Origin: Actinomycetota bacterium
GTDB lineage: Bacteria; Actinomycetota; UBA4738; HRBIN12
Reading direction: 5' to 3'
Length of the DNA: 42,117 nt
Assembly: GCA_036395715.1 (NCBI GenBank)
Contig: DASWDB010000020.1
Coordinates: forward strand, 1 to 42,117
Under the pieces are notes generated by a model. The model ran no database searches. It was not told the origin of the DNA and saw nothing but the letters and a program-made list of their open reading frames with translations. The position numbers and the translations under genes were made by a program. Position 1 is the stretch's first letter; each line of letters opens with the position of its first letter. Shown here piece after piece: positions 7,961 through 41,514 of the stretch.

Positions 7961-7979
7961 GGCGCCCACACGTCGGCCG

Positions 7980-9530: not shown

Positions 9531-9532
9531 GG

Positions 9533-17960: not shown

Positions 17961-17976
17961 GGGCGGCCGGGCCTCC

Positions 17977-21748: not shown

Positions 21749-22585
21749 ATGGGAACCCTAGCGCAGCCGGGGAGGGGCCGACCGTTCGGTCGCAGGATCG
21801 TCTCGCTGGGACGAGAGCTGCGACGCAAAGCGCTGCGCGACGACGTCGCGACCCAAGCCTCGGCGTTGACGTTCACCGCGTTCCTCTCGATCTTCCCGTT
21901 GCTGCTGCTCGCCACGTCGTTGATCGGGTTCCGGCTCCAGGACCGAGGGATGCGGTCCATCGACCAGATCGTCTCGACCATCCCCGGGCTGCAGCAGCTC
22001 GTCGCCGGGCAGACGCAGACCATCGTCGACGGCCGGTACACGACGGGCATCGTCGGTCTCGCCGGTCTGATCTGGGCGGCGTCGGCGCTTTCCAACCGGG
22101 CTCGGCGGGCGCTCGGCGTGATCTTCGAGCACCACGAGACGGTGCTCGCGAGCCGGTTCGTATCCCTCGGCGACACGTTCGCGCTCGGCGCGCTCCTGCT
22201 CGTGGGCACAGCCATCGCCGGAGCGGTTACCACCATCGCGCACGATCGCACCGGCGGCTGGCTGGGCATGGTCGCCGCCGATGCCGGCGTGTTCGTGATG
22301 CTCGTTGGCTTCTTCCTCGCCGCCTATCGACTCCTCGTGCCCGGCCATCAGACCTTCCGCGACCTCCTTCCCGGCGCGGTCGTGTGCGCGCTCGGGTGGA
22401 CCATCCTGCAAGGGATCGGGAGCTGGTTCGTGGCGCGCCAGGTGGCGCAGTGGTCGGTGCTCTACGGGACGATGGCGACCGTGTTCGGCGTGCTGCTGTT
22501 CCTCCGGATCGCAGCGTGGATCTTCCTCGCCGGTGCGGAGCTGTCGGCGATCCTTCGTCGGCCGGCCGTCGCTCAGCTCGACTGA
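21749..22585 (+). CDS. YihY/BrkB (virulence factor BrkB / RNase BN-like) family membrane protein
   Basis: ASALTFTAFLSIFPLLLL signature and 6 TM helices; C-terminal FLRIAAWIFLAGAELSA is typical of the family. Confidence 0.75.
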   Translation: MGTLAQPGRGRPFGRRIVSLGRELRRKALRDDVATQASALTFTAFLSIFPLLLLATSLIGFRLQDRGMRSIDQIVSTIPGLQQLVAGQTQTIVDGRYTTGIVGLAGLIWAASALSNRARRALGVIFEHHETVLASRFVSLGDTFALGALLLVGTAIAGAVTTIAHDRTGGWLGMVAADAGVFVMLVGFFLAAYRLLVPGHQTFRDLLPGAVVCALGWTILQGIGSWFVARQVAQWSVLYGTMATVFGVLLFLRIAAWIFLAGAELSAILRRPAVAQLD

Positions 22586-24912
22586 ACGGGGACCGAGGCG
22601 ACATCCCGTTCGAGCACGAACGGGACGCTCGTGAGCAGGACGCGATCCTCGTGGAGGAAGAGCCGTTTGATGAAGAGCGCGCTCTGGTTATGCAGGGGGA
22701 GCTGCCACCAGTGGGACACGATCACCTCGGGCACCAAGACGTTGACCATGACGTTCGGGTGCATCGAGAATCGTCGCACCTCGTTCAGCATCGGACGGGT
22801 GAGGTCTCGGAACGGGGCTTCCACGATGTCGAGCGGAACGTCGAGCCCGAGGTTGAACCACGACTCCTCGAGCCGATGCGCCTGCTCGGGATCCACATCG
22901 AAGTAGATCGCGCGTGTGACGGTCGCATCCAGCGTGCGCGCGTAGTTGATCGCGCGGATGGTCACGTCGTTGACCGACGAGACGAAGACGAGGGTCACCG
23001 TCTTCTGCGGGATCAGGGGCTTGGAGACGTCGGCGTGCCGGGCAGGGTCTTCGACCACCGGCACGTCGGTCACGACGACGTGCGCCTCCCGCAGGAGCCC
23101 CGCCTTCAGTCGGACCAGCTCGTTCTTGCCGACGAGGTACCGGACCAACCCCTGATCAACGATCTCCGGGACCATGATCGTCACGACGTCGGCGGGGCCG
23201 GGCTGCAGACGCCGAACGTACGCGCGCACCGCCGAGGTGAGGTTGCCGCCGCCGACCGCCTCGAGCTCAGGTGTTCCCGGCTCGCAGAACGATCGCCATC
23301 CCGTCGCCAGATCCGGCGGGACCGACGCGCCCGGGGTCACGGGGTGCAAGGACGCGGGTCGGAACGAGCGCACGTAGCCGAGCGCCTCCGCCGTGGATGC
23401 GTCGACGTCGCGGACCAGCAGCACCACGTGGTTCGCTTCCGGCGCGCCCGGCCGTTCCGCACCCCGGCGCGTCTGGGCGCGCACCCACCCGTAGTGCCGA
23501 TGGATCGCGTAGAAGCCCGGGACGAGCAGCGCGATGATCAAGATCGAGAGCCATGCGCCTTCGGCGAACTTCGAGAGCACCACCACGACCAGGACGATCG
23601 CGGTCGTGATCGCCCCGATGATGTTGATCACGATCGACCGACGCCATCCGCGCATCGCGGCATCGCCCTTGCGTCCCTCGGCCAGCCAATGCCTGACCAT
23701 CCCGGTCTGCGACAGGGTGAACGAGGTGAACACGCCGACCACGTAGAAATGGATCAGGGTGTTCAGGTCGGCATCGAAGGCGTAGATCATCACGCACGAG
23801 AGCAGCCCAAGCACGATCACGCCGTTGGAGAAGACCAGCCGGTCGCCGCGGTTGACGAACTGGCTCGGCATGAACCGGTCGCGCGCGAGGATCGAGGCGA
23901 GCCGCGGGAAGTCCTGGTATGCGGTGTTCGCGGCGAGGATCAGGATGGCGGCGGTGAAGAACTGCACCAGGAAGAATCCCAGCGTCGCGTTGCCGAAGAT
24001 CCCGATCGCGATCTGCGCGACGACCGATCTCTGCTCGCTCGCGACGACGCCGTCCATGTGGGTGGCAAGCCACGAGATCCCGAGGAACATCGTGACGGCG
24101 ATCGTCCCCATGATCGCGAGGGTCGCGGCGGCGTTCCTGGCCTGGGGGCGCTTGAACGCGGGCACACCGTTGGAGATCGCCTCGACGCCGGTGAGCGCGG
24201 TGGCACCCTGGGAGAACGCCTTCAGGATCGCGAACAGGCCGACCGCCGCGGCGGTCGTGGCCGCACCCGGGATCAGGTCCGAGCTGACGCCGACGGCCGG
24301 GCAGCCATGGAGGCACCGCGCCAGCCCGATCACGACGAGGAGAAGGATCGAAACGACGAACCCGTAGGTCGGGATCGCGAACACCGTTCCCGACTCCCGC
24401 GCGCCCCGGAGGTTCGCGAACGTCACGAGCAGGACGAACAGGATGGACAACAGGACCCGGTGCTCGTTCGCCCACTCGAACGCCGACCCGATCGCGAAGA
24501 CGCCGGCGACGACCGACACGACGACGGTCATCATGTAGTCGAACAGCAGGGCCGCGGCCGCGACCAGGCCCGGGAGCGTCCCGAGGTTGTCCTTGCTGAC
24601 GATGTACGCGCCGCCGCCCCCCGGGTACGCGCGGACGGTCTGACGGTACGAGCTCACGACGATCGCCATCAGCAACGCGATCGCGATCGCGATCGGCATC
24701 ACGTAGGACTGGGGGCGCGACGTGACGAGCGTGAGCGCGATCAGGATCTCCCCGGTGGCGTAGGCGACCGACGACAGGGCGTCGGACGCGAAGACCGGGA
24801 GCGCAAGCACCTTGGGCAGCAGGGTGTGCTCCAGTTGCTGGCTGGTGAACGCGCGCCCCACGAAGATGCGCTTGATGATCGAGGTCGGGGGGGCGTGCGA
24901 CGTCGTTGCCAT
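22573..24912 (-). CDS. APC-superfamily permease A with ~310-aa cytoplasmic C-terminal extension (candidate TrkA-associated K+ transporter subunit)
   Basis: 779 aa with ~12 TM. Motifs shared with permease B: SSVAYAT, YRQTxxAYPxxGGAYIV, RESGxxFAxPTY, TGVEAISNGVPAF, ILAANTxxxDFPRLAS, RLVFSNG, GVFTSFTLSQ. Only 22 nt downstream of the KdpE-like regulator on the same strand. Confidence 0.8.
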   Translation of the reverse strand: MATTSHAPPTSIIKRIFVGRAFTSQQLEHTLLPKVLALPVFASDALSSVAYATGEILIALTLVTSRPQSYVMPIAIAIALLMAIVVSSYRQTVRAYPGGGGAYIVSKDNLGTLPGLVAAAALLFDYMMTVVVSVVAGVFAIGSAFEWANEHRVLLSILFVLLVTFANLRGARESGTVFAIPTYGFVVSILLLVVIGLARCLHGCPAVGVSSDLIPGAATTAAAVGLFAILKAFSQGATALTGVEAISNGVPAFKRPQARNAAATLAIMGTIAVTMFLGISWLATHMDGVVASEQRSVVAQIAIGIFGNATLGFFLVQFFTAAILILAANTAYQDFPRLASILARDRFMPSQFVNRGDRLVFSNGVIVLGLLSCVMIYAFDADLNTLIHFYVVGVFTSFTLSQTGMVRHWLAEGRKGDAAMRGWRRSIVINIIGAITTAIVLVVVVLSKFAEGAWLSILIIALLVPGFYAIHRHYGWVRAQTRRGAERPGAPEANHVVLLVRDVDASTAEALGYVRSFRPASLHPVTPGASVPPDLATGWRSFCEPGTPELEAVGGGNLTSAVRAYVRRLQPGPADVVTIMVPEIVDQGLVRYLVGKNELVRLKAGLLREAHVVVTDVPVVEDPARHADVSKPLIPQKTVTLVFVSSVNDVTIRAINYARTLDATVTRAIYFDVDPEQAHRLEESWFNLGLDVPLDIVEAPFRDLTRPMLNEVRRFSMHPNVMVNVLVPEVIVSHWWQLPLHNQSALFIKRLFLHEDRVLLTSVPFVLERDVASVPVQSS

Positions 24913-24934
24913 GGTCGCTGATGCTACGCGGCGA

Positions 24935-25618
24935 TCAGGCGGATTCGCCGATCCAGCGGTACCCGACGCCCGGTTCGGTGACGATCAGCCCGGGTGAGGA
25001 CGCGTCGTCGCCCAGCTTCTTGCGGAGCGCGCGGATGTACGTGCGGAGGTAGGTCGTCTCCGTCCCATAGCCCTGCCCCCAGACCCGGCGGAGGAGCCAC
25101 TGGTGGGTGAGGAGCTTCCCGGGGTTGGAAACGAGCGCCTCCAATAAGGAGTACTCGGTGGGGGTCACGTGCAGCTGCTCCCCGTCCAGGGTGACCAGCC
25201 GACGGGCGAGATCGATCTCGAGCCCACCGTAGCGGAGCGTCGGCTGGGGCGGTTCGTCCGGGCCCGCGCGGCGGAGCGCCGCGCGGGCCCTCGCGAGCAG
25301 CTCCTCCATGGCGAACGGCTTCGTCACGTAGTCGTCGGCGCCGGCATCGAGCGCCGCGACCTTGTCCGACTGGGCCTCGCGGACCGACAGGATGATCACC
25401 GGGACGTCGGAGAACCCGCGGACCCTCCGGATCACCTCGGTGCCGTCCATGTCGGGGAGCCCGAGGTCCAGCAGCACGAGGTCGGGCTGCTGGTCGGCCG
25501 AGGCGACCACCCCCTCCTCCCCGGTTCCGACCGTCGCGACCTCGTAGCCGTGCGCCTCGAGGCTCGTCCGGAGCGCGCGCCGGATCTGCGGTTCGTCGTC
25601 GACGACCAACACCTTCAC
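24935..25618 (-). CDS. OmpR/KdpE-like response regulator 1
   Basis: GTG start overlapping the kinase stop (GTGA, 25615-25618). REC: VLVVDDEPQI, LDLGLPDMDG, ALDAGADDYVTKPF. Winged helix: LTPTEYSLLEAL, YLRTYIRALRKKL, TEPGVGYR. Confidence 0.9.
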   Translation of the reverse strand: MKVLVVDDEPQIRRALRTSLEAHGYEVATVGTGEEGVVASADQQPDLVLLDLGLPDMDGTEVIRRVRGFSDVPVIILSVREAQSDKVAALDAGADDYVTKPFAMEELLARARAALRRAGPDEPPQPTLRYGGLEIDLARRLVTLDGEQLHVTPTEYSLLEALVSNPGKLLTHQWLLRRVWGQGYGTETTYLRTYIRALRKKLGDDASSPGLIVTEPGVGYRWIGESA

Positions 25619-27051
25619 AGCACCGCCTCCTCGGTCGGGACGTCAACCACCATCGCCGTCCCGCCTCCCGTCGTCTCCTCGACCCGGATGCGCCCGCCAT
25701 GGGCCGTGACGATGGCGCGCGCGATCGCGAGGCCGAGGCCGCTGCCCGAGGACTCCGGGCTCTCGCGGCCCCGGTAGAAGGCTTCGAACACCTTCTCACG
25801 CTCCTCGGGCTTGATGCCCGGACCCTCGTCGGCGACGCGGACGCGGACCGCGCCGCGCGTCTCGGCGACGTGGATCCGGATCGTTCCGCCGCGCGGCGAA
25901 TGCCGCGCCGCGTTCTCCAGCAGGTTCGTCAGCACCTGGTCGAGCTGCACCGGATCCGCGGGGACCTCGGGGAGGTCGGGCGCCAGCTGCAGCTCGACCG
26001 CGAAGTCGGCGAGCAACGGACGCATCCGCGCCACGACCGCTTCCGCAACCTCGTCGACCGCCGTCGGCACGCGCTTCGGGATCAGCGCGCCCGCTCGGAT
26101 CCTCGCGAGATCGAGGATGTTCCCGACCAATCGATTCAGTCGGTCGGTCTCCTCGAGGATCGTCGTGAGCAGTTCGCGCTGCTGGGACGCGTCGTGCGTC
26201 GCGCTCACGTCCAGCAGGCTCGTCACCCCCGCCTTGATCGATGCGAGCGGGGTCCGCAGATCGTGGGTGACCGACGAGAACATCGCGGCGCGCAGCTGGT
26301 TCGTCTCGGCATCCAATTGCGCGAGCCGCGCTCGAGCGTCCAACCGCGCTCGGTCCAACGCGACCGCCGCCTGTCGCGTCGCGGCCTCCAGGAGCAGCCG
26401 CTCGTCGCGCGTGAACGGGCGTCTGCCCTCCGGCCGTTCCGCGATCAACGTCCCGAGCGGGATGTTCGACACGACGACGGGGATCACCTCGGTCGGTCCC
26501 CCTCGGGGCACACCCGGACGGACGGCCCTCGCCTCGATGTCCTGGCCGTCGAGGGTCACGGACACCTGGCACGACGCGAGTCCGAACGGCTCCAGGAGAA
26601 CCTGCACGAACTCGTCGAGCACCCGGTCGGGGACGTCTCCGGACAGGAGCTTCGCCGACAGGAAGGCGAGCAGCCGCGCCTCGCGCTCCCGACGGCCCGC
26701 CCGGTCGCGCTCATCCGCCGCGTTGCCGACCACGAGGCCGACGACGACGGCGATGGCCAGGAACACGACCGCGGCGATCAGATCCCGCAGCTGATCGAAG
26801 CGGAGCACGCGATCCGGGGATTCCACGATCGGCAGGGCGATCGAAGCGAGCACCGCCGCCACGACCCCCGCCCACAACCCGCCGCTCACTGCCGCGACCG
26901 TCACCGCGAGGATGAAGATCGCGACGCCGGCGCCCTGGAGCTGGGACGTGAGCAGCGCGAGCACCGCTCCGGCCATGGTGGCGAGCAGCCCGATGCCGAT
27001 CGCACGCAGCGTCAACCGGGCGAGACGACCGCGAGGACCCTCGACCACCAC
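25615..27051 (-). CDS. KdpD-type sensor kinase lacking the N-terminal KdpD/Usp module (DUF4118-like TM + GAF-like + HisKA + HATPase)
   Basis: 478 aa. The TM bundle resembles the KdpD membrane domain. H-box FSSVTHDLRTPLASI, N-box LTNLLENAARHS, G1 DEGPGI, G2 GSGLGLAIA. GTG start, uncertain by a few codons. Confidence 0.82.
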   Translation of the reverse strand: MVVEGPRGRLARLTLRAIGIGLLATMAGAVLALLTSQLQGAGVAIFILAVTVAAVSGGLWAGVVAAVLASIALPIVESPDRVLRFDQLRDLIAAVVFLAIAVVVGLVVGNAADERDRAGRREREARLLAFLSAKLLSGDVPDRVLDEFVQVLLEPFGLASCQVSVTLDGQDIEARAVRPGVPRGGPTEVIPVVVSNIPLGTLIAERPEGRRPFTRDERLLLEAATRQAAVALDRARLDARARLAQLDAETNQLRAAMFSSVTHDLRTPLASIKAGVTSLLDVSATHDASQQRELLTTILEETDRLNRLVGNILDLARIRAGALIPKRVPTAVDEVAEAVVARMRPLLADFAVELQLAPDLPEVPADPVQLDQVLTNLLENAARHSPRGGTIRIHVAETRGAVRVRVADEGPGIKPEEREKVFEAFYRGRESPESSGSGLGLAIARAIVTAHGGRIRVEETTGGGTAMVVDVPTEEAVL

Positions 27052-27081
27052 GGGCGAACGCTACCGCCCACGCGGTGGCCG

Positions 27082-27147
27082 TTCACGCCTACGGGGCATT
27101 CACGACATCTTCACGCCACCGGCGGCTTCCTTCACGCCCCGCTCACG
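27082..27147 (+). promoter_or_regulatory. Array of TTCACG hexamers with 11/21-bp phasing (candidate OmpR-family regulator binding sites)
   Basis: TTCACG at 27082, 27099, 27110 and 27131, and CTCACG at 27142. Start-to-start spacings are 17, 11, 21 and 11 bp. Three copies extend to TTCACGCC. The array lies 31-96 nt upstream of the short kinase start, in the divergent region shared with trkA. Confidence 0.45.
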
Positions 27148-27272
27148 TCCGATGCCGGAGCCTACTCATCGGAAAGAGGTTTTCTGCCGGGTGGGTCGCG
27201 TGGCCGTCACCCCTAGGCGATTCGCCGGGCAGGATGGGTACATCCACCACTTTCCTCCGAGCCCGTCTTCGG

Positions 27273-27300
27273 GGCCGGCAGCTCCCTCCAGCTGCCGGCC
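27273..27300 (+). other. Strong GC stem-loop in the long trkA upstream region
   Basis: GGCCGGCAGCT / AGCTGCCGGCC form an 11-bp perfect stem (27273-27283 and 27290-27300) with loop CCCTCC. A smaller hairpin, CCCG TCTT CGGG, lies just upstream. No U-tract follows. Confidence 0.4.
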
Positions 27301-27391
27301 TCAAGACATTTCTGGGGTGGTACGCGACGACCACTCTCGCCCGAACGGGCGTCATGTCATCGATGGTGCCCCGCAGTACCCTTCTGCCTCG

Positions 27392-28054
27392 ATGCGCGTC
27401 CTGATCATGGGTTGCGGGCGGGTCGGATCCGAGCTTTCGCACGCGTTGCTCGAAGGCGGCCACGATGTGACCGTCATCGACAAGAACCCGGAAGCGTTCT
27501 GGCGATACCCACCCGGCGAGGGCGCCCGGCAGATGGTCGGGCTGGGGTTCGATCGTGAGCTCCTCGAGGAAGCCGGGATCAAGGACGCCGACGCGTTCAT
27601 CGCCGTTTCCTCCGGAGACAATTCGAACATCGTCTCGGCACGGGTGGCGCTCGAGCACTTCCACGTGCCCAAGGTGATCGCCCGGATCTACGATCCTCGG
27701 CGCGCCGAGATCTATGGGCGGCTCAACATCCCGACGGTCGCGACCACGACCTGGGGCATCAAGCAGATCCAGCTGATGCTGCTGCACGACCGAGAGGAGA
27801 TCCGCGAGAGCCTCGGCGGCGGCGACATCCTCCGTGTGCGGGTCCCGGTCCCCGCCCACCTGATCGGCAAGCCGGCCAACATCCTCAACGTCGAGGGCAA
27901 GATCCTGGTCGCGGGGGTCTCACGTGGCGGCACGGGCTTCCTCCCGACACCCGACAGCACGCTGCAGGCCGGCGATTACCTCGTCGTGATGATGGTCAAG
28001 GACGGTCTGGAGATGCTCGACCAGCAGCTCGAGCCCGCATCGGAGCACCACTGA
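27392..28054 (+). CDS. trkA: TrkA/RCK-type K+ transport regulatory protein 1 (CeoB-like)
   Basis: Start chosen at ATG 27392 (MRVLIMGCGRVGS...), the canonical TrkA N-terminus with a GxGxxG Rossmann motif. The upstream part of the track ORF from 26912 is non-coding-like. A TrkA_C-like C-terminal half is present. The stop overlaps the next start (TGATG at 28052-28056). Confidence 0.88.
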   Translation: MRVLIMGCGRVGSELSHALLEGGHDVTVIDKNPEAFWRYPPGEGARQMVGLGFDRELLEEAGIKDADAFIAVSSGDNSNIVSARVALEHFHVPKVIARIYDPRRAEIYGRLNIPTVATTTWGIKQIQLMLLHDREEIRESLGGGDILRVRVPVPAHLIGKPANILNVEGKILVAGVSRGGTGFLPTPDSTLQAGDYLVVMMVKDGLEMLDQQLEPASEHH

Positions 28055-28719
28055 TGCGGGTGGTGGTCACCGGGGGCGGCGCGATCGGCCGGCACCTCTC
28101 GGCCGATCTGGTGGAGCGCGGACACGACGTGACCCTGATCGAGCAGCATCGTTCCGTCGTCGACCGGCTCCGCGAAGAGATCCCCGACGTGAAGGTGATG
28201 TTCGGCGACGCATGTGAGCCTCGCATCCTCGACGAGGCCCACCTCTCCGACGCCGACGTCGTCGTCGCGGCCACCGGCGACGACGAGGACAACCTGGTCA
28301 CATCGTTGCTGGCGAAGCAGGAGTTCGCCGTGCCCCGCGTGCTCGCCCGCGTGAACCATCCCGGCAACGAGTGGTTGTTCAACGAGCAGTGGGGCGTCGA
28401 TCAGGCGGTCTCGCCGCCACACATGCTCACGGCGATGGTCGAAGAGGCCGTGACCACTGGCGACCTGGTCCGCTTGCTGCGGCTGGAGGGTGGACGCGCC
28501 TCGATCGTCGAGACCAAGCTCACGACGGTCTCGCCGGCGACGGGCAGGGCGCTCTACGAGCTCCGGCTCCCGCCCGACTCCACGATCGTGGCGATCCTCC
28601 GCGAGGGTCACGTGGTGATCCCGCAGCCGGAGACGGTCCTCGCAGCCGGGGACGAGCTCGTCGCGCTCGCCGCGCCCGAATCGGAGCTGACGCTCCGCGA
28701 AGCGATCGTCGGCGACTGA
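28054..28719 (+). CDS. trkA: TrkA/RCK-type K+ transport regulatory protein 2 (CeoC-like)
   Basis: MRVVVTGGGAIGRHLSADLVERGHDVTLIE Rossmann motif, ATGDDEDNL, and a TrkA_C-like C-terminus. 221 aa. Confidence 0.88.
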   Translation: MRVVVTGGGAIGRHLSADLVERGHDVTLIEQHRSVVDRLREEIPDVKVMFGDACEPRILDEAHLSDADVVVAATGDDEDNLVTSLLAKQEFAVPRVLARVNHPGNEWLFNEQWGVDQAVSPPHMLTAMVEEAVTTGDLVRLLRLEGGRASIVETKLTTVSPATGRALYELRLPPDSTIVAILREGHVVIPQPETVLAAGDELVALAAPESELTLREAIVGD

Positions 28720-28770
28720 CGGGGCTCAGCTGTCGGGAGTCGTCGGCCGTCAGGGCTCGGTCGTCGGCGA

Positions 28771-29457
28771 TCATCCGCCCGGCTCGAACCGGTAGCCCAT
28801 CCCGGGCTCGGTGATGAAGAAACGGGGGCGTGCCGGCTCCGGCTCGAGCTTCCGTCGGATCTGCGCCATGTACACGCGGAGGTAGTTCGTCTCCTCCTCG
28901 TACCGCGGACCCCAGACCTCCTGGAGGAGCTGGCGCTGACCAACCAGCTTCCCCGGATGCCGAACCAGGATCTCGACGAGGTGCCACTCGGTCGGCGTGA
29001 GACGGATCGCCGTCTCGTCGGCCGCGACCACCTTCTTCGCGGTGAGGTCGACGGTGAACGCCGGCGTGCGAACCACCGCTTCCTCGGCGTCGGGCGAGAC
29101 CGCCCGGCGTTCGGACGCTCGCACCCGGGCGAGCAGCTCACCCATCCCGAACGGCTTCGTGACGTAGTCGTCCGCCCCGGCATCAAGCGCGTCGACTTTC
29201 TCGGATTCCTGCTCCCGCGCCGACAGCACGATGATCGGAACAGCCGTCCAGGTCCGCAGGCCCCGGATCACGTCGACACCGTCGATCCCGGGCAGCCCGA
29301 GGTCGACGATGACGACGTCGGGCCGATGGCGAGCCGCCAGATCCAGGGCCGCCTCACCGTCCGGCGCCGTATCCACGACGTAGCCCCGAGCGACCAGGTT
29401 GGTCCGGAGTCCACGGAGGATCTGTGGCTCATCGTCGACGACGAGGACCCTCGTCAT
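28771..29457 (-). CDS. kdpE: KdpE-like OmpR-family response regulator 2
   Basis: ATG overlaps the kdpD stop (ATGA, 29454-29457). VLVVDDEPQILRGL, VDLGLPGIDG, LSAREQESEKVDALDAGADDYVTKPF, LTPTEWHLVEIL, YLRVYMAQIRRKLE, TEPGMGYR. Confidence 0.9.
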   Translation of the reverse strand: MTRVLVVDDEPQILRGLRTNLVARGYVVDTAPDGEAALDLAARHRPDVVIVDLGLPGIDGVDVIRGLRTWTAVPIIVLSAREQESEKVDALDAGADDYVTKPFGMGELLARVRASERRAVSPDAEEAVVRTPAFTVDLTAKKVVAADETAIRLTPTEWHLVEILVRHPGKLVGQRQLLQEVWGPRYEEETNYLRVYMAQIRRKLEPEPARPRFFITEPGMGYRFEPGG

Positions 29458-31964
29458 GTCGACGCCGCCCGGAAGGCGAGCACCATCGTGAGCCCGCCAC
29501 CGGGCGTGTCTTCGACCGAGAGCTCACCGTCCATCGCCTCGACGAAGCCCTTCGCCACGGCGAGCCCGAGCCCGATCCCGTCGCGGCTCGTGCCGTCGCC
29601 CAGCCGCTGGAAGGGACGGAACATCCGCTCGCGGTCCTGTGGCCCGACGCCGGGCCCGCGGTCGATCACCCGCAGCTCCACGCGGCCGCCAGCCGCGGAG
29701 CCATGGATCCGCACAGGGCGATCGGGCGGCGCCACCCCCGACGCGTTGCCCACGATGTTCGCGATCGCCCGCTCGAGCAGACCGGGATCCACGTCGATCC
29801 GTGGGAGCGTCTCCGGCACCTCGACGAACAACCCGCGCCCACCGTCCGGGAGACTGGCGAGCGCCTTCGGCACCACCTCGTCGAAGCCGACGACGTCACG
29901 CACCAGCTTGAGGGCCCCGGCCTGCAGGCGGCTCATGTCGAGGAGGTTCGCGACGAGGCCCGTGAGACGGTCGGTCTCCTCCTCGATCGTGCCCAGGAAG
30001 AGCCCCGTCTCCTCGGGCGACCACGCAACATCGTCGTCACGGAGGCTCGAGACCGACGCCTTGATCGACGCGAGCGGGGTTCGCAGGTCGTGTGACACGG
30101 CCGCGAGGATCGCGGTGCGGAGCGCGTCCGCCTCCGCCCTCGTCGCGGACTCCGCGGCCTCCCGAGCGAGCTCCCGGCCGCGGACGGCGAGCCCGAGTTG
30201 CCCGGCGAACACGGAAAGGAGCTGCAGCCGATCGGCCGGGAGCGGGTTCCCACGGAGCGCGAGGACGGTGTCGTTCCCGAGCTGCACGACCTGCCCGGCC
30301 TCCTCCGGATCGTCCGGAGGGCCGGCACCCGCGGTCGCCTCTCGCGCCCACGTGCCCTCGTGACCGGCGCCGTCGCCGTTCTCCCGGCGACGGAGCACCG
30401 AGACCGCCTCGGCGCCGAACGTCGTCCGTGCGTACTCCACGAGCTCGGGCAGGGGGTCGCCCTCGGCGGCCACCCGCGCGGTCAGGCGGGCGAGCGCCTC
30501 CGCTTCGGCCCCCCGCCGCTGCGCTTCCGCCCGATGCCTCGCCTCGCGGTCGACGAGGACGCTCACGCTCCCCGCGACGACGACGAACACGATGAGGGCA
30601 ACCACGTCCTCGGGGTTGGCAACCTTCCAGGTGTGGACTGGCGGTGTGAAGAACCAGTTGATCAGCAGGGCGGACACCACCGCCGCCGGGATCGCCGGTC
30701 GTAGACCGCCACCGAACGCGATCCCGATGACGACCGTCAGGTACAGGAGCATGATCGTGGACAGCGCCATCTGTCGGTCGAGCGCGGCGACGGCGGTCGT
30801 CAGGCAGATCAGGACGATCGCGCCGGCGACACCCGCGATCAGTTGACGATCGCTCGAGAGGCCGGTCGCGACGCGGCCCGTCACGCGGACGCGCTGCGGG
30901 GCCGCTTCCTGCGAGATGACGTGGACGTCGATCGGGCCCGAGCCGCGGATCACGTCGAGGACGACGGAGCCCCCGAGCAACCCCCGGAACCGCGAGCGAT
31001 GGTCGGCTCCGACCACCACCTGCGTGATCCCCTCGGCCCGCGCCATGTCCAAGATCGCCTCCGGAACCCCCGCCCCCACGACCTCCTCGAACCGGCCACC
31101 GACCTGCCGCACGAGCTCGCGGATCGCCTCGAGGTGCGGCGCGTCGTCCCGGCCCCGACCCGGGATGACGTGGACGGCGATCAGATCGCCGCCGCGTCGC
31201 GCGGCCATCCGCGCGGCGCGGCGGACGACGGGCTCGTCCTCCGGACGACCCCGCACCGCAACGAGGATGCGCTCGCGCGCCTTCCCCGGCTCGGATCCCC
31301 GAGCCGGGGACGGCCCCGCCCGGAGCTCCTCGTCCACCCGGTCGGCCATCCACACGAGCGACAGCTCGCGCAGACGTGCGAGGTTCTCGGCACGGAACGT
31401 CCGCGCCAACGCGGCGTCCATCCGTTCGGGCGGGAAGACGTTCCCGTGCGCCAGCCGGCGCTGGAGCGCCTGTGGCGTCATGTCGACGAGCTCCAGCTGG
31501 TCCGCGCCCCGAACGAGGGCGTCGGGGACGGTGTCCGCCGGCGCCTCGCCCGTGATCCCCTCGATCACGTCGTGCAGCGACTCGAGGTGATGGATGTTGA
31601 CCGTCGAGATCACGTCGATGCCGCCGGCGAGCAGCTCCTCGACGTCCTGCCAACGGTGCGCGTTGCGCGACCCGACGGCGTTCGCGTGCGCGAGCTCGTC
31701 GACCACGGCGACCTCAGCACGGCGGGTCAACACGGCGTCGACGTCCATCTCCTCGGTCGCGCTTCCATCGAGACCGACGCGTCGCGGGACCACCTCCAGG
31801 TCGCGGGTCAGGGCGGCGATCTCCTGTCGGCCGTGCGTCTCGACGAAGGCGAGCACGACGTCGGTACCGCGCCCGCGGCGGCGCCGAGCTTCGTCGAGCA
31901 TCGCGTAGGTCTTGCCGACGCCCGGCGCGTACCCAACGTAGATCCTCAGCCGTCCGGGCTCCAT
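29454..31964 (-). CDS. kdpD: Full-length KdpD-type sensor kinase (KdpD N-domain + Usp + TM + GAF-like + HisKA + HATPase)
   Basis: Start chosen at ATG 31964 (MEPGRLRIYVGYAPGVGKTYAML...), the typical KdpD N-terminal P-loop; the track ORF starts at 32078. A Usp-like block ERILVAVRGRPEDEPVVRRAARMA is followed by 4 TM helices. H-box AVSHDLRTPLASI, N-box IANIVGNAS, G1 DRGPGV, G2 GIGLGLAVA. Confidence 0.88.
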   Translation of the reverse strand: MEPGRLRIYVGYAPGVGKTYAMLDEARRRRGRGTDVVLAFVETHGRQEIAALTRDLEVVPRRVGLDGSATEEMDVDAVLTRRAEVAVVDELAHANAVGSRNAHRWQDVEELLAGGIDVISTVNIHHLESLHDVIEGITGEAPADTVPDALVRGADQLELVDMTPQALQRRLAHGNVFPPERMDAALARTFRAENLARLRELSLVWMADRVDEELRAGPSPARGSEPGKARERILVAVRGRPEDEPVVRRAARMAARRGGDLIAVHVIPGRGRDDAPHLEAIRELVRQVGGRFEEVVGAGVPEAILDMARAEGITQVVVGADHRSRFRGLLGGSVVLDVIRGSGPIDVHVISQEAAPQRVRVTGRVATGLSSDRQLIAGVAGAIVLICLTTAVAALDRQMALSTIMLLYLTVVIGIAFGGGLRPAIPAAVVSALLINWFFTPPVHTWKVANPEDVVALIVFVVVAGSVSVLVDREARHRAEAQRRGAEAEALARLTARVAAEGDPLPELVEYARTTFGAEAVSVLRRRENGDGAGHEGTWAREATAGAGPPDDPEEAGQVVQLGNDTVLALRGNPLPADRLQLLSVFAGQLGLAVRGRELAREAAESATRAEADALRTAILAAVSHDLRTPLASIKASVSSLRDDDVAWSPEETGLFLGTIEEETDRLTGLVANLLDMSRLQAGALKLVRDVVGFDEVVPKALASLPDGGRGLFVEVPETLPRIDVDPGLLERAIANIVGNASGVAPPDRPVRIHGSAAGGRVELRVIDRGPGVGPQDRERMFRPFQRLGDGTSRDGIGLGLAVAKGFVEAMDGELSVEDTPGGGLTMVLAFRAAST

Positions 31965-31983
31965 GCATCGGAGGCTAGCCCCC

Positions 31984-32000
31984 TTGACGCGATCTTGACG
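31984..32000 (+). promoter_or_regulatory. Direct repeat TTGACG-N5-TTGACG (11-bp phasing) in the kdpD / permease B divergent region
   Basis: TTGACG at 31984-31989 and 31995-32000, followed immediately by TCGACG. The repeats lie 20-36 nt upstream of the kdpD ATG and 77-93 nt upstream of the permease B ATG. The hexamer is also -35-like. Confidence 0.4.
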
Positions 32001-32076
32001 TCGACGGGCGATCCCTGGCGGAACCCTGATGCGTCCGCCGCGGGAACCCGCCCGTTCGCTCCCTAGCGTGGGATGC

Positions 32077-34440
32077 ATGGAACACGACGTCGATCTGGGG
32101 ACGGGCTACGCGTTCAAGCGCCTGCTGCTGGGTCGGCCCCTCGCCACGTCTCGGTTGGAGCACGAGCGTTTGGGTCGACCGACCGCGCTCGCGGTCTTCT
32201 CATCCGACAACATGTCGTCGGTCGCCTACGCGACCGAGGAGATCCTGCGGGTCCTGATCCCGGCGATCGGCATCCTGGCGTTCTCCTACGTGCTCCCCAT
32301 CTCGTTCGTGATCGTCCTGATCGAGGCGATCCTGATCTTCTCGTACCGGCAAACGATCAAGGCGTACCCGACCGCCGGCGGCGCCTACATCGTGACGAAG
32401 GACAACCTCGGGCTGCTGCCGGCGCAACTGGCCGGCGTAGCGCTCCTCGTGGACTACGTCCTGACGGTGAGCGTGTCCACGGCGGCAGGCGTTCAGGCGA
32501 TCAGCTCGGTGGTGCCGCTCGCGGTGCCGATCAGGATCGTGCTGTCCCTCGTGTTCGTGTGGATGATCGCCTACGGCAACCTGCTCGGCGTGCGGGAGTC
32601 GGGCAAGATCTTTGCCGCGCCCACCTATCTCTTCATCGTGAGCCTCGGTCTCACGTGCGTGATGGGGATCTACGAGGTCCTGTCCGGCCACCTCCAGTCG
32701 TTCCCGATCCAACACCAGGTCGCGGGCGGAAGCCTCAGCCCGTTCGCCGGCGCCGTCACGGTCTTCATCCTGTTGCGCGCGTTCGCGTCCGGTGGCGCGG
32801 CCGTGACCGGGGTCGAGGCGATCTCGAATGGCGTGCCGGCGTTCCGCAAGCCCGAGTGGCGCAACGCCCAGATCACGCTGGTATGGATGGGCCTGGTCCT
32901 TGGGTCGTCCTTCCTCGCTGTGTCGTACCTCGCCGCGAAACTCCAGGTGGTCCCGGTCGCGAACGAGAGCAAGTCGGTCCTGGCGATCATCGCGCAGGCC
33001 GTCTACGGCACCGGCGCCGTCGGACGGTTGCTCTTCCTCATCCTGCAGATCGGCACGACCCTCATCCTGATCCTCGCGGCCAACACGTCGTTCGCCGACT
33101 TCCCGCGGCTGGCCAGCTTCCACGCGGGTGACGCCTTCATGCCCCGCCAGCTCACGAAGCGCGGACACCGGCTGGTCTTCTCGAACGGGATCGTAGCGCT
33201 GGCCGCCGCCGCCAGCCTGGTCCTCATCGCGTTCAGGGCGAGCGTCACGGCGATGATCCCGCTGTATGCCCTCGGCGTGTTCACGTCGTTCACGCTCTCG
33301 CAGAGCGGCATGGCCAAGCGCCATCTCCGCCTGCGCGAGAAGGGCTGGAAGTTCGGGCTGTTCGTGAACGGTCTGGGAGCGATCGCGACCTTCGTCGTGG
33401 CGGTCGTGATCGCGATCGTCAAGTTCGCGGGTGGCGCGTGGATCGTGATGGTGACGGTGCCGATCCTCGTCGCGATCCTGGTCCGGGTGAACAAGACCTA
33501 CGAGGCCGAGGACGAGCAGCTCGTGATCGGCCCCGAGGACCGGGCGAACGGCGCCACCACGCGGGCCGAGCACAACGCGGTCGTGCTGGTGGACGAGCTC
33601 GACGCCGATACGTTGCACGCCGCGCAGTACGCACTCACGATCCGCCCGACCCATGTCACGGCGCTGCACCTCGGCGGTCGCGACCCGGAGCTCGAGGCGG
33701 CGTGGCGCGACGCCGGGCTCCGCATCCCGCTCGTCGCGATCCCCGGCGACGAACGACCCGGGCGGGCGATCGCACGCCACCTCCGTGACCTCGGCGTCAC
33801 GCAGCACCAGGTGACGGTGATCCTCCCGGCCCCCGCCAACGAGGCCTTCCTCGCGCGGGTCCGACGCATGCGGGCCTGGGCCGGGCTCGCCGAGTCACTC
33901 CGCGAGCTGCCGAACGTGGGCGTCGTCATCGTCCGGGCGCACGGCGACACCGCCGATCCGGCCCATCCACACCGCGTGCAGCTCTCCCCGCGCCGACGTC
34001 ATGTCGCGCTGATCCTGGTCGAGGACCTGGACCGGGCGGTCCTCAAAGCCTCGCGGTACGCACGCGGGATCGAGGCGATGGAGGTACGGGCCGTCCACGC
34101 GGCGAGCGATCCCGACCGCGCAAAGATGTTGATCGACCAGTGGATCGCGTTCGGGTACCTGGCCAGGATCCCCCTGGACGTCGAGGAATGCAACGATCGC
34201 AACATCGAGCGGAGCCTGCGACGCTACGTGTCGCGGTTCCAGGACGAAGCGACCGAGGTCACGCTGATCCTCCCGCGCCGGCATTTCCCGAAGCGCCGCC
34301 ACCTCCTGCTGCACGATCGAACGAGCCGAAGGATCGCCGGTACGTTCGCGGAAGAGCCTCACGTCGACGTCGTCGTCGTGCCGTACCGCCTCGGCGCGGA
34401 TCGGACGTCGGCGCCCGAAGCCGAACTCGCTACGCGGTGA
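32077..34440 (+). CDS. APC-superfamily permease B with ~315-aa cytoplasmic C-terminal extension (paralog of permease A)
   Basis: Start chosen at ATG 32077 (MEHDVDLGTGYAFKRLLLGRP...) by alignment with the N-terminus of paralog A. It has the same conserved motif set as permease A and the same two-repeat C-terminal tail. Confidence 0.8.
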   Translation: MEHDVDLGTGYAFKRLLLGRPLATSRLEHERLGRPTALAVFSSDNMSSVAYATEEILRVLIPAIGILAFSYVLPISFVIVLIEAILIFSYRQTIKAYPTAGGAYIVTKDNLGLLPAQLAGVALLVDYVLTVSVSTAAGVQAISSVVPLAVPIRIVLSLVFVWMIAYGNLLGVRESGKIFAAPTYLFIVSLGLTCVMGIYEVLSGHLQSFPIQHQVAGGSLSPFAGAVTVFILLRAFASGGAAVTGVEAISNGVPAFRKPEWRNAQITLVWMGLVLGSSFLAVSYLAAKLQVVPVANESKSVLAIIAQAVYGTGAVGRLLFLILQIGTTLILILAANTSFADFPRLASFHAGDAFMPRQLTKRGHRLVFSNGIVALAAAASLVLIAFRASVTAMIPLYALGVFTSFTLSQSGMAKRHLRLREKGWKFGLFVNGLGAIATFVVAVVIAIVKFAGGAWIVMVTVPILVAILVRVNKTYEAEDEQLVIGPEDRANGATTRAEHNAVVLVDELDADTLHAAQYALTIRPTHVTALHLGGRDPELEAAWRDAGLRIPLVAIPGDERPGRAIARHLRDLGVTQHQVTVILPAPANEAFLARVRRMRAWAGLAESLRELPNVGVVIVRAHGDTADPAHPHRVQLSPRRRHVALILVEDLDRAVLKASRYARGIEAMEVRAVHAASDPDRAKMLIDQWIAFGYLARIPLDVEECNDRNIERSLRRYVSRFQDEATEVTLILPRRHFPKRRHLLLHDRTSRRIAGTFAEEPHVDVVVVPYRLGADRTSAPEAELATR

Positions 34441-34789
34441 ACTCGAGCCGCGGGTTGATCATCTGGATCCCGCCGCGCTGCGCCCCAAGCACCCCTTCGA
34501 CGACCACCTTCGCCCCCAGGCCGAGCCCGCCGATCGCACGGCGTCCCATGAACCGAACGACGACCTCGCCCGTGCCGTCGGAGACCACCGCCTCGAGCGA
34601 CTCGTTGTCCTTCATCGGGAACACGGTGAGCCGTCGGATCACGCCCGCGATCTTGACCCGTTGCCGCAAGGGCGCCTCGGCGATGCGCACCGAGCCGGGC
34701 ACCTTGTCCGCCCAGTCGCGGATCTCGGACTCGAGGCGCGTTTCGTCGCTCTCGGTGAGACGCCGAAGGAAGCGACGGAACCCTCCCAT
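34430..34789 (-). CDS. Small OB-fold nucleic-acid-binding-domain-like protein
   Basis: Start chosen at ATG 34789 (MGGFRRFLRRL...), 119 aa. The core VKIAGVIRRLTVFPMKDNESLEAVVSDGTGEVVVRFMGRR...VVVEGVL resembles the actinobacterial OB-fold proteins found near trkA. The upstream part of the track ORF overlaps hppA, on the same strand but in another frame. Confidence 0.6.
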   Translation of the reverse strand: MGGFRRFLRRLTESDETRLESEIRDWADKVPGSVRIAEAPLRQRVKIAGVIRRLTVFPMKDNESLEAVVSDGTGEVVVRFMGRRAIGGLGLGAKVVVEGVLGAQRGGIQMINPRLEFTA

Positions 34790-34830: not shown

Positions 34831-37083
34831 TCAGACCGCCGCGCGGGCCTTGCGCAGATCCTCTTCGAGCTCGGACTTCCGGTTCTTCGAGACCCAGATC
34901 ATGGCCGCCACGATCACCGCGCCGACGAGCGCCACCGCGATCCGGATCGCCGTGTCGTCCGCGTACTCGACGACGAGTGGTGCGATCAACAGCGCCACGA
35001 GGTTCATCACCTTGATCAAGGGGTTCAGCGCCGGGCCGGCGGTGTCCTTGAACGGATCGCCGACCGTGTCGCCGATCACGGCGGCCTTGTGACTCTCCGA
35101 GCCCTTGCCGCCGTAGTTCCCCTCCTCGATGAACTTCTTGGCGTTGTCCCAGGCGCCGCCCGAGTTGGAGAGCATCACGGCGAGCAGCTGTCCGGTGAGG
35201 ATCGCCCCCGCCAGGAACGCGCCGAGCGCCTCCGCCCCGAGGAAGAACGCAGCGATCACGGGCGCCAGGACGGCCAACAACCCCGGTGTCGTGAGCTCCC
35301 GGAGCGACGTCTTCGTACAGATGTCGACGACGGCGGCGTAGTCGGGCTTCTCCTCGTAGGTCATGATCCCCGGGTGGTCTCGGAACTGGTTCCGGACCTC
35401 GACGACGACTTGCATCGCAGCCCGTCCCACCGCCCGGATCGCGAGCGAGGAGAACAGGAAGGCGACGCACCCACCCAACAACAGGCCGACGAGCACATCG
35501 GGCTGATCGACCCGGATGCCGAGGAACGTGTATCCGGCGTTCTCCAAGGCCGCCTCGAACGAACCGAACAACGACGTCGCCGCGATCACCGCGGTCGCGA
35601 TGGCCATGCCCTTCGTGATGGCCTTCGTCGAGTTGCCGATCGAGTCCAGCCCCCCGAGGATCTCCGCCGGCCGTCCTTCGAACTCACCGGACATCTCGGC
35701 GATGCCCTGGGCGTTATCCGAGATGGGGCCGAACGTGTCCATCGACACGATGACGCCGACGGTGGTCAGCATGCCCATCCCCGTCAGCGAGATGAAGTAG
35801 AGCCGCTCGAAGGCCGTGTGACCGAGGTAGAAGGCCGAGGTCATGGCCGCTCCGATGAGCAAGGCCGACCACACGGTGGACTCGAGCCCCACCGAGAACC
35901 CGGACAGGATCGTGGTCGCGGCACCCGTGACGGTCGACTCAGCGATCTCCTGCACGGGCTTGTACTTCGCGTCGGTGAAGTACTGCGTGAGGACCTGGAT
36001 CAGCGACGCGAGGATCAGACCGATCAGCACCGCCGCGAACGGTCGCCAGTCCTTCGTCACCAACTCGGAGGCGACGAAGACGATCCCCGCCGAGAGGGCG
36101 GCCGAGACGAAGAACCCGCGGTTGATCGCCTTCATCCCATGCTCCTCCTCGGAGCGCGGCGAGACCGACAGGATGCCGACGATGGAGGTCAGAACGCCGA
36201 TCGCTCGCACCCAGAGCGGGAACATCACGCCCGCGATCGCACCGACCTCGCTCCCGCTGAACGCCGCGGCGCCCAGGATCAGCGAGGCGACGAGCGTGAC
36301 CTCGTAGGACTCGAACAGGTCCGCGGCCATCCCGGCGCAGTCACCGACGTTGTCGCCGACGTTGTCGGCGATCGTGGCAGCGTTGCGCGGGTCGTCCTCG
36401 GGGATGCCCTGCTCGATCTTCCCGACCAGATCGGCGCCTACGTCGGCGGCCTTCGTGAAGATCCCGCCGCCGACGCGCATGAACATCGCGAGCAGCGCCC
36501 CGCCGAACCCGAAGCCGACCAGCACGCTCGTGGCGTCGCCCTTGTAGATGATCAGGATCAACGTGGCGCCGAACAGCCCCATCCCGACCGTGAACATCCC
36601 GGCGACGCCGCCGGCCCGGAACGCGATCCGGACCGCTCGGCGGAGCCCCGACTCCCGTGCCGCGTTCGCGGTCCGCACGTTGGCGCGGACGGCGAGCCAC
36701 ATCCCCACGTAGCCGGTGACCATCGACGCGAGGGCGCCGAGCAGGAACGCGATCGAACGCCCGAACCGGATGCTGAGTGCGCTGTGCTCGGCGTTCTTCG
36801 GCACGGGAAGGACGAAGAAGAGCACGATCGCGAGGACGCCGAGGAACACCGCGAGCGTCCGGTACTGCCGGTTGAGGTAGGCCTTCGCCCCCTCCTGGAT
36901 CGCGCGGGCGATCTCCTTCATCTTCTCGGTGCCCTCGGGCGCGGCGAGCACCTCGCGGACCAGGTACCAGGCGAACAGCAACGCGACGAGAGAGACGCCG
37001 AAGATGAGCCACAGGGCCAGGTTCTCGCCCGACCCGAACCGCGCCTGGATCGGGCCGCTCTCCTGGGCAAGCGAGCCGACCAT
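34831..37083 (-). CDS. hppA: Membrane-bound H+-translocating pyrophosphatase (K+-independent signature)
   Basis: 750 aa. GGIFTKAADVGADLVGK, DNVGDNVGDCAGMAADLFESY, GNSTKAITKG, IGDTVGDPFKDTAGPALNPLIKV. GGAGG lies 4 nt upstream of the ATG. Confidence 0.95.
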   Translation of the reverse strand: MVGSLAQESGPIQARFGSGENLALWLIFGVSLVALLFAWYLVREVLAAPEGTEKMKEIARAIQEGAKAYLNRQYRTLAVFLGVLAIVLFFVLPVPKNAEHSALSIRFGRSIAFLLGALASMVTGYVGMWLAVRANVRTANAARESGLRRAVRIAFRAGGVAGMFTVGMGLFGATLILIIYKGDATSVLVGFGFGGALLAMFMRVGGGIFTKAADVGADLVGKIEQGIPEDDPRNAATIADNVGDNVGDCAGMAADLFESYEVTLVASLILGAAAFSGSEVGAIAGVMFPLWVRAIGVLTSIVGILSVSPRSEEEHGMKAINRGFFVSAALSAGIVFVASELVTKDWRPFAAVLIGLILASLIQVLTQYFTDAKYKPVQEIAESTVTGAATTILSGFSVGLESTVWSALLIGAAMTSAFYLGHTAFERLYFISLTGMGMLTTVGVIVSMDTFGPISDNAQGIAEMSGEFEGRPAEILGGLDSIGNSTKAITKGMAIATAVIAATSLFGSFEAALENAGYTFLGIRVDQPDVLVGLLLGGCVAFLFSSLAIRAVGRAAMQVVVEVRNQFRDHPGIMTYEEKPDYAAVVDICTKTSLRELTTPGLLAVLAPVIAAFFLGAEALGAFLAGAILTGQLLAVMLSNSGGAWDNAKKFIEEGNYGGKGSESHKAAVIGDTVGDPFKDTAGPALNPLIKVMNLVALLIAPLVVEYADDTAIRIAVALVGAVIVAAMIWVSKNRKSELEEDLRKARAAV

Positions 37084-38580: not shown

Positions 38581-38752
38581 CGCGGCGTCACCTATCCAGT
38601 CAGTACCGATGCCGACCAGTCTTCCCGGCTCGCCTGCGTGACCCGTGCATCGTACCCCGCAACGGATGCCGGGAGCATCCCGAGCGGGCATCACGAACTC
38701 GCAACGCGGAGATGCCAAGAACGCGGCAGACGCCTGGTAGCCTCGTCGCGTT

Positions 38753-41484: not shown

Positions 41485-41514
41485 GCTCGCAGGGGTGCTA
41501 GGGTCTCGCAACCG

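Follow-up and report, generated by a model that had tools for sequence, protein, structure and literature searches.

A contig assigned to an actinomycete (Actinomycetota bacterium, GenBank assembly GCA_036395715.1, contig DASWDB010000020.1) encodes two KdpD/KdpE-type two-component systems, a pair of TrkA proteins and two large permeases within a single cluster. The locus raises the question of what the permeases transport and which membrane proteins these regulatory genes serve. The whole contig (42,117 nucleotides, 42 kb; G+C content 67–73%) was analyzed and is referred to here as the window. The cluster would serve potassium acquisition as a genomic island in a soil actinomycete that is uncultured and high in G+C, and the model that appears quite likely overall is that the permeases are KimA-type importers under the control of the KdpDE-type systems and that the TrkA pair works with these carriers. 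KimA is already known as a K+/H+ importer; the window contains a variant with apparently rewired KdpDE-type control and an adjacent split TrkA, and the latter pairing recurs across actinomycetes including Mycobacterium.

Open reading frames (ORFs) were chosen by codon-position G+C (third-position values of 0.86–0.94 being of the coding type) together with Pfam matches. A minus-strand operon consists of a short KdpD-type histidine kinase gene (25615–27051), a gene for a KdpE-type response regulator (RR_A, 24935–25618) and permA (22573–24912, 779 aa); kinase and regulator genes are joined by a GTGA overlap, and a 22-nt gap separates the regulator gene from permA. The plus-strand trkA1 (27392–28054, 220 aa) and trkA2 (28054–28719, 221 aa) genes are divergent from this operon and share a TGATG overlap. 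A second minus-strand pair, the full-length kdpD (29454–31964) and kdpE (28771–29457, product KdpE_B), is joined by an ATGA overlap and is divergent from permB (32077–34440, plus strand, 787 aa). The kdpD ORF is open to position 32078, and its start is likely the in-frame ATG at 31964 based on the domain position, a context resembling a ribosome-binding site, and the overlap of the longer frame with permB. This layout, with its coordinates, overlaps, 22-nt gap and divergent pairs, had been proposed in an initial annotation of the contig and was confirmed throughout by direct reading of the junctions and by the ORF and Pfam calls. The two permeases were described there as paralogs with a long tail in common, in agreement with the 38% identity that they share over their full length.

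Permeases related to KimA

In a phmmer search against all PDB chains, KimA of Bacillus subtilis (6S3K, 8B70, 8B71) was the sole protein matched by each of the two permeases (6S3K, E = 1.7e-117 for PermA and 8.8e-102 for PermB). The transmembrane (TM) domain at residues 13–483 aligns to residues 5–463 of KimA with approximately 45% identity, and the cytosolic domain of PermA (636–765) aligns to KimA 472–603 (i-E 2.6e-9). KimA is a K+/H+ symporter of the KUP family that has been studied genetically, functionally and by cryo-electron microscopy, and the roles of its individual residues were defined in these studies (PMC6994465, PMC10284832). KimA numbering was reconstructed by means of the alignment and verified with the residues that the structure papers name. 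On this numbering, the K+ ligands and gates (D36, Y43, T121, T230, and Y377), the trans-inhibition site D117, the proton-coupling residue E233, and residues S125, Y118, and N237 were all found to be identical in PermA, PermB and 98 homologs (18 and 80 from the first and second of the three retrievals of related loci described below). An AlphaFold2 model of PermA (mean pLDDT 71; 80–93 in the cytosolic part, with low-confidence regions in the membrane domain) was compared with known structures by Foldseek and retrieved KimA as best match (8B70, 8B71, and 6S3K, E = 2e-31 to 6e-28), about 20 orders of magnitude ahead of the amino acid carriers of the APC superfamily (approximately 1e-8). KimA ranks first by sequence and by structure, the two routes that had been proposed for classifying the permeases. 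PermA and PermB are very probably KimA-type K+/H+ symporters that share with KimA the 12-TM LeuT fold, the residues of the K+ site, gate and proton coupling, and a PPAT-like C-terminal cytosolic domain, and we infer that they transport K+, as the initial annotation had suggested.

Public databases point to a different substrate. All 120 close homologs are annotated as “APC family permease” or “amino acid transporter”, neither permease has a family in NCBIfam, and the match in Pfam is to the generic AA_permease_2 only, so that the two proteins could be read as amino acid or polyamine transporters. This reading was rejected because KimA itself carries the identical generic label: it matches AA_permease_2 as well, and its PDB entry is titled “APC family permease | Potassium transporter KimA”. 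The identity of the TM domain to KimA, the retention of all K+- and H+-binding residues, the distance to amino acid carriers in Foldseek and a genomic context of K+ genes only make it extremely improbable. Thousands of Actinomycetota entries named “APC family permease” or “amino acid transporter” are probably K+ importers.

The initial annotation had instead seen in the permeases the pore subunits of an experimentally uncharacterized class of K+ transporter, gated by TrkA in the manner of TrkH and KtrB. The absence of trkH, ktrB and kdpFABC from the window, which it had reported, holds: tblastn with KdpA, KdpB, KdpC, TrkH, and Kup of Escherichia coli gave no match in the 42 kb, and Pfam scans of the flanking genes revealed none of the Kdp, Trk or Kup type either. 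This absence and the very strong synteny of trkA with the permease genes would fit a new class of pore. Set against it are the conservation of every functional residue of KimA, itself a characterized protein with solved structures (PMC6994465, PMC10284832), the architecture of the LeuT fold, which makes the KimA type a proton-coupled carrier with alternating access, unlike the channel-like TrkH and KtrB, and the fact that Streptomyces homologs have already been named KimA-like: two such proteins of S. venezuelae, which share 39% and 42% identity with KimA, are listed, as untested, in a 2023 review of osmoadaptation in Streptomyces (PMC10117811). A new class of TrkA-gated pore is therefore very unlikely. 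The statement that no kup-like gene is present in the window was wrong at the family level since both permeases are themselves members of the KUP family (KimA subfamily), and E. coli Kup gave no BLAST match to them because it is too distant.

The permeases depart from KimA in their cytosolic part. Compared with KimA and with homologs of approximately 640–690 aa from Streptomyces, Nocardia, and Mycobacterium, both PermA and PermB are longer by about 145 residues, which are inserted between TM12 and the C-terminal domain. In PermA, the TM domain extends to approximately residue 481 and is followed by two cytosolic domains, CD1 (approximately 494–620) and CD2 (approximately 637–766), which display a weak but significant similarity to each other (BLASTP E = 8e-6 in a single comparison) and which form consecutive five-strand β-α-β domains of the same topology in the AlphaFold2 model. 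Based on this similarity and the shared topology of the model, the insert is a tandem duplication of the PPAT-like domain of KimA, and PermB has tandem cytosolic domains as in PermA. The long two-domain form was also identified in loci of Acidimicrobiia, Acidobacteriota, and Ktedonobacteraceae. The pocket that binds cyclic di-AMP (c-di-AMP) in KimA (R337, H579, N580, Q581, and S582) is altered in both proteins: PermA has S337 and keeps HNQS, and PermB keeps R337 and has HDRT in place of HNQS. All five residues are kept in the short actinomycete homologs, including all 80 that are linked to trkA.

The runners-up to KimA in Foldseek were cation-chloride cotransporters (NKCC1, KCC1–4, and NCC, E approximately 1e-14). 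Like the permeases, these proteins consist of an APC-fold membrane domain followed by tandem α/β cytosolic lobes (prokaryotic C-terminal domain 3G40), but with an identity of only 9–13% and different substrates and ion sites the resemblance is one of architecture only. The similarity in fold between the cytosolic domain of KimA and 3G40 was already noted in the KimA paper (PMC6994465). KimA-type proteins also occur in a two-domain form, whose C-terminal plan recalls that of the eukaryotic cation-chloride cotransporters.

KdpDE-type proteins and direct repeats

The long kinase contains the complete set of KdpD domains (N-terminal KdpD with Pfam E = 7.5e-84, Usp, the four-TM DUF4118, HisKA, and HATPase) and shares 31.5% identity with E. 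coli KdpD across 869 residues. The short kinase (DUF4118, HisKA, and HATPase) lacks the N-terminal KdpD and Usp domains, that is, the sensor half, and thus does not have the full KdpD architecture; it aligns to residues 413–867 of the KdpD in the window (34% identity) and to residues 429–884 of E. coli KdpD (28%). The regulators are 48% (RR_A, with Response_reg and Trans_reg_C domains, over its full length) and 52% (KdpE_B) identical to E. coli KdpE. In E. coli and M. smegmatis, KdpD and KdpE control the P-type ATPase KdpFABC; the neighbors in the window are KimA-type carriers instead, and no homolog of KdpA, KdpB, or KdpC is linked to the two systems within the 42 kb.

Direct repeats of two hexamers with a 5-bp spacer are located in both divergent promoter regions. 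Two pairs lie 48–96 bp upstream of the start of the short-kinase gene (TTCACG-n5-TTCACG at 27099–27115 and TTCACG-n5-CTCACG at 27131–27147, both given on the plus strand), and a third (TTGACG-n5-TTGACG at 31984–32000, plus strand) lies within the 112-bp spacer between kdpD and permB, 77 bp before the permB ATG. TTSACG-n5-TTSACG, with one mismatch allowed, matches nowhere else in the window. Both TTCACG pairs were found at the same place and with a fixed 32-bp offset in eight related loci (L001, L003, L006, L013, L022, L023, L024, and L032); L004 and L018 have one TTCACG pair each, and in L015 the matching place is taken by a TTGACG pair. In an alignment of the window with the eight loci, the hexamers are invariant and the spacers and flanks have diverged (51% mean identity). 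TTGACG-type pairs were also identified upstream of kimA-like genes or kdpD in L017, L021, L028, L045, L052, L055, and L068, with the boxes in L017 and L021 approximately 90–120 bp upstream of kimA. Overall, the motifs are present in at least 13 loci that have the two-component system. Across 1.02 Mb of loci with divergent trkA and kimA genes that lack the two-component system, only three matches were found, none of them intergenic at the locus, and KdpE-type boxes are absent between trkA and kimA in Mycobacterium, Pseudonocardia, and others, indicating that the two-component control is specific to the clade of the window.

The geometry of the repeats agrees with known KdpE sites. The E. coli KdpE operator is TTTATA-n5-TTTACA. 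The site of M. smegmatis KdpE that was identified by DNase footprinting is CCGTAAAGAAACCATCAAGGCC (PMC5401905), which reads TTGATG-n5-TTTACG on the other strand and thus has the same 6-5-6 arrangement with related half-sites. The TTCACG pairs are candidate sites for RR_A and the TTGACG pair is a candidate box for KdpE_B.

The location of permA inside the kinase–regulator operon, the conserved repeats, and a locus of Actinomadura sp. DC4 (L051, 1626–11869) that contains two tandem kdpD-kdpE-kimA units on one strand argue that the kimA paralogs are controlled by the adjacent KdpDE-type systems. Transcription of permA and permB is probably governed in this way through the 6-5-6 repeats. Comparison with related loci, in which the repeats are kept, supports the claim of the initial annotation that the permeases are wired to two KdpDE-type systems. 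As Actinomadura sp. DC4 is a cultured organism, KdpDE control of KimA could be tested there. The same locus contains a remnant or the end of kdpB/kdpC just upstream, and another trkA1-trkA2 pair divergent from kimA lies 7 kb further.

Several points weigh against this assignment of the control. The motif was first derived from the window, leaving its conservation in other loci as the only independent test. All four signaling proteins miss the NCBIfam equivalog cutoffs (KdpD 415.6 and the short kinase 190.1 bits at a cutoff of 1123; KdpE_B 254.5 and RR_A 237.1 bits at a cutoff of 325), although KdpD and KdpE are nevertheless the best-scoring NCBIfam families for them. Furthermore, the genome could contain kdpFABC outside the window: kdpABC is located near the same island in seven relatives (L004, L008, L010, L011, L020, L023, and L030), and a further KdpDE-like pair is present near the island in relatives. 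Regulation of kdpFABC may therefore be an additional or even the main role of the KdpDE pair. If both systems still served a kdpFABC operon elsewhere, their place beside kimA would have no regulatory meaning. In Streptomyces, kdpDE lies apart from kdpFABC, which would fit this; in the Streptomyces loci retrieved here, it is found beside trkA and kimA. This alternative is unlikely given that permA follows the regulator gene within one operon, that the conserved repeats are placed exactly in both promoter regions, and that the association recurs in the gene order of L051 and in the boxes near kimA in L017 and L021.

Control by KdpDE-type systems would replace a different mechanism. In B. subtilis, kimA is controlled by a c-di-AMP riboswitch. 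No ydaO-type c-di-AMP riboswitch or other Rfam match was found in the whole window at the gathering threshold, nor in the trkA leader at E ≤ 5. Under the proposed model, each kimA paralog would be under its own KdpD/KdpE-type system in place of the riboswitch. The inducing signal would be K+ limitation or osmotic upshift, upon which the KdpD-type kinases would phosphorylate the KdpE-type regulators; these would bind the direct repeats and switch the symporters on, the permA operon also activating itself. The carriers, of the KUP family with a LeuT/APC fold (homodimeric in Bacillus) and each with a duplicated cytosolic domain of the nucleotide-binding type, would then take up K+ driven by the proton motive force. 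KdpDE-type systems would then be capable of switching targets, from the Kdp ATPase to secondary K+ carriers, with an operator that can be recognized.

A split TrkA beside KimA-type carriers

Each of the two TrkA proteins (approximately 220 aa, with TrkA_N and TrkA_C domains in Pfam and, for TrkA1, also in NCBIfam) corresponds to one half of a canonical TrkA with two RCK units (4J9U, 4G65). TrkA1 matches the N-terminal half and carries the nucleotide-binding motif GCGRVG; TrkA2 matches TrkA 4J9U with E = 1e-47. The pair thus resembles the regulators of TrkAH and KtrAB in its RCK domains with GxGxxG motifs and in that two translationally coupled halves make one TrkA, but it differs in its neighbor, a KUP-type carrier.

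Related loci were collected by three retrievals, for which the queries were PermA (first), a profile of the trkA-linked short KimA proteins (second) and a conserved DNA pattern (third). In the first, the trkA pair was located within approximately 2.6 kb of a kimA-type gene in 36 out of 74 judgeable loci. In the second, trkA2-trkA1 was divergently adjacent to kimA in all 79 judgeable loci with spacers of 75–384 bp (Pseudonocardia, Amycolatopsis, Lentzea, Saccharopolyspora, Rhodococcus, Nocardia, Gordonia, Mycobacterium, Mycolicibacterium, Micromonospora, and Actinoplanes). In the third, the pair stood directly beside a kimA-type gene in all 93 judgeable loci among the matches listed, which added M. 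szulgai, M. asiaticum, Cellulomonas, Citricoccus, Bifidobacteriaceae, Kineococcus, Nanopelagicales, and Streptosporangiales. The second and third retrievals are independent and together place the two side by side in 172 out of 172 judgeable loci across the class Actinomycetes (Mycobacteriales, Pseudonocardiales, Micromonosporales, Streptosporangiales, Micrococcales, Bifidobacteriaceae, and others). Furthermore, in five metagenome-assembled genomes (L004, L008, L010, L015, and L023), a PermB-type kimA ends only 7–12 nt before trkA1 in a tight kimA-trkA1-trkA2 operon. The genomic coupling of the trkA pair to the KimA-type family in actinomycetes is therefore supported.

RCK proteins of the Trk and Ktr systems act on TrkH or KtrB. 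No gene for either lies in the window, and 159 out of 160 related loci have none next to their trkA pair. TrkH, KtrB, and KtrD were reported as not found in S. venezuelae in a review that is silent on TrkA (PMC10117811). A scan for relatives of TrkH revealed no genome of the class Actinomycetes among the best 80 loci, which is weak evidence. The case for an absence of TrkH draws on that one review (PMC10117811), on the lack of a known TrkH in M. tuberculosis and on these 80 loci. The chances that the split TrkA works on KimA-type carriers appear close to balanced on these comparative grounds. TrkA1 and TrkA2 jointly amount to one canonical TrkA and most likely form a nucleotide-sensing RCK ring, which would serve the KimA-type carriers rather than TrkH or KtrB and tune uptake after translation. 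Judging from synteny only, TrkA may physically gate KimA, with about even chances, and a contact between the two proteins is inferred. No paper that proposes a KimA–TrkA unit or that links KimA with actinobacterial TrkA was found in the literature, as judged from titles and abstracts.

The same synteny would also arise if the trkA pair and kimA were only co-located and co-regulated in a K+ island, with TrkA1 and TrkA2 acting elsewhere (on TrkH or KtrB, a CPA2 antiporter, a channel, or DUF3159) or as soluble sensors that make no contact with KimA. We regard this as a serious possibility, somewhat short of an even chance, and several observations speak for it and against a TrkA that works on KimA. 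About half of the loci in the first retrieval, the remainder mentioned above, contain a second, unlinked type of KimA-like paralog with no trkA nearby. The one locus out of 160 with trkH nearby, from an Acidimicrobiia metagenome-assembled genome (L033, 5028–11102), contains trkA1-trkA2-trkH-kimA on one strand, and this order implies that trkA and kimA can be adjacent because they share a K+ island, and not because their products form a complex; it may also represent the ancestral state from which the actinomycetes lost trkH. KimA already has a cytosolic regulatory domain of its own, with the c-di-AMP pocket kept in 80 out of 80 trkA-linked homologs. RCK proteins are not known to regulate KUP/APC carriers, and the partners identified for them so far are TrkH, KtrB, CPA2 proteins, and channels. 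The small membrane protein DUF3159 is also conserved beside trkA2 in Mycobacterium, Streptomyces, and Micromonospora. On the other side stand the adjacency in every judgeable locus over the whole class, the narrow spacing in the kimA-trkA1 operons, the rarity of trkH, and the report on S. venezuelae, together with the result of the TrkH scan.

DUF3159 was considered as the partner of TrkA and was set aside except as part of this alternative: it is a steady neighbor elsewhere but is missing from the 42-kb window. In Mycobacterium, Streptomyces, and Micromonospora, it lies downstream of trkA2 together with a gene for an OB-fold protein (L119:2417–3088, L079:7404–8210, and L125:3737–4423), and the window keeps the OB-fold gene without DUF3159.

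A split TrkA without an evident partner is also known from mycobacteria. The constitutive “Trk” system of M. tuberculosis and M. smegmatis has been described as two TrkA proteins without a membrane component (PMC13163235, 2026; PMC5401905), and a kdp/ceoBC triple mutant of M. tuberculosis still imports K+, for which unknown channels were suggested (PMC13163235); this import would fit a carrier that works without its regulator. Among the papers that mention Rv2690c, none has a title or abstract on K+ transport. CeoB and CeoC of M. tuberculosis are the same kind of split TrkA pair as in the window, and a kimA-like gene is its neighbor in other Mycobacterium species. The locus of M. simulans contains DUF3710, DUF3159, trkA2, and trkA1, followed by a kimA-like gene in divergent orientation (product of 672 aa) and a gene for a TRAM methyltransferase, an order that we take to match the Rv2689c–Rv2696c region of M. 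tuberculosis. The initial annotation had pointed to an arrangement of Rv2690c with ceoB and ceoC. It was found in M. simulans, M. szulgai, M. asiaticum, and others, but the M. tuberculosis locus itself was not retrieved, the matches listed for the DNA pattern conserved in Mycobacterium coming from other mycobacteria only. The Mycobacterium loci differ from the window in that they have neither the two-component system nor the repeat boxes, and their KimA-like proteins are of the short single-domain form (approximately 650–670 aa).

The near-invariant pairing with the trkA genes makes KimA a concrete and testable candidate for the missing membrane component of mycobacterial Trk. A KimA-type carrier, including the orthologs of Rv2690c, may be the missing partner of the split TrkA (CeoB/CeoC), a proposal that we make tentatively and to which we give a little less than even chances. 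The unit would be an RCK-regulated symporter of the KUP type, of a kind not known before, which in the clade of the window would also be controlled by KdpDE and carry the duplicated cytosolic domain.

Leader of trkA1 and genes around the island

The 245-nt leader of trkA1 contains a conserved element (27254–27300, plus strand) that was aligned across seven loci. It consists of an invariant CCUCCGA (27254–27260) followed by a hairpin (27273–27300) with an 11-bp stem and an invariant loop CCCUCC. In an RNAalifold analysis of six sequences, 9 out of 20 pairs displayed compensatory changes. The element has no match in Rfam and was found only in the clade that has trkA1 as the first gene across from the kinase operon. 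An anti-Shine–Dalgarno role or a new cis-regulatory RNA are both conceivable. The leader region also contains a further conserved GGAAAGAGGTT at 27171–27181. Coding explanations for this region were discarded. A 380-aa ORF from 26912 that would extend TrkA1 overlaps the kinase gene; an N-terminal extension that includes an in-frame GTG at 27191 appears low in third-position G+C and falls in a region that is variable or deleted in relatives; and for a small minus-strand ORF behind the GGAGG-like leader motifs, the region is not conserved as coding.

Next to permB, a minus-strand ORF (34430–34789) encodes the small OB-fold protein that the initial annotation had placed there. The ORF is real, with weak Pfam matches of the OB-fold type (RecG_wedge and CcmE), and its homolog in the Streptomyces locus L079 (E = 4e-10) is the OB-fold gene that adjoins DUF3159 and trkA. 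Relatives were found in approximately 90 of the fetched loci with the L079 protein as the query and in 28 with the ORF of the window, and the OB-fold gene is a conserved neighbor of the trkA/kimA locus in actinomycetes.

The island is flanked by topA, a tmk fusion, and holB on one side and by genes for an H+-pyrophosphatase, a DUF2254 protein, and a Na/Ca exchanger on the other. The membrane H+-pyrophosphatase gene (34831–37083, minus strand; Pfam H_PPase, E = 1.6e-255) adjoins the island, and such a gene is also located beside trkA2 in the related loci L004, L008, L013, and L024. In this H+-pyrophosphatase, the motif GNTT(A/K)A was not found as written. A functional link may exist between an H+-pyrophosphatase that generates a proton motive force and proton-coupled K+ importers. 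The DUF2254 membrane protein (37189–39141, minus strand) and the protein of the Na/Ca-exchanger family (40441–41631, minus strand) make the surroundings rich in ion-handling genes. The tmk fusion is a single ORF (15918–18131, minus strand) between holB and topA with an N-terminal half resembling MFS_3/MFS_1 and a C-terminal thymidylate kinase. Five paralogous genes for histidine kinases of the HisKA_3 (NarL-partner) type are located at 116–10811, four on the plus strand and one on the minus strand, and in some of these kinases a very long N-terminal region contains no Pfam domain.

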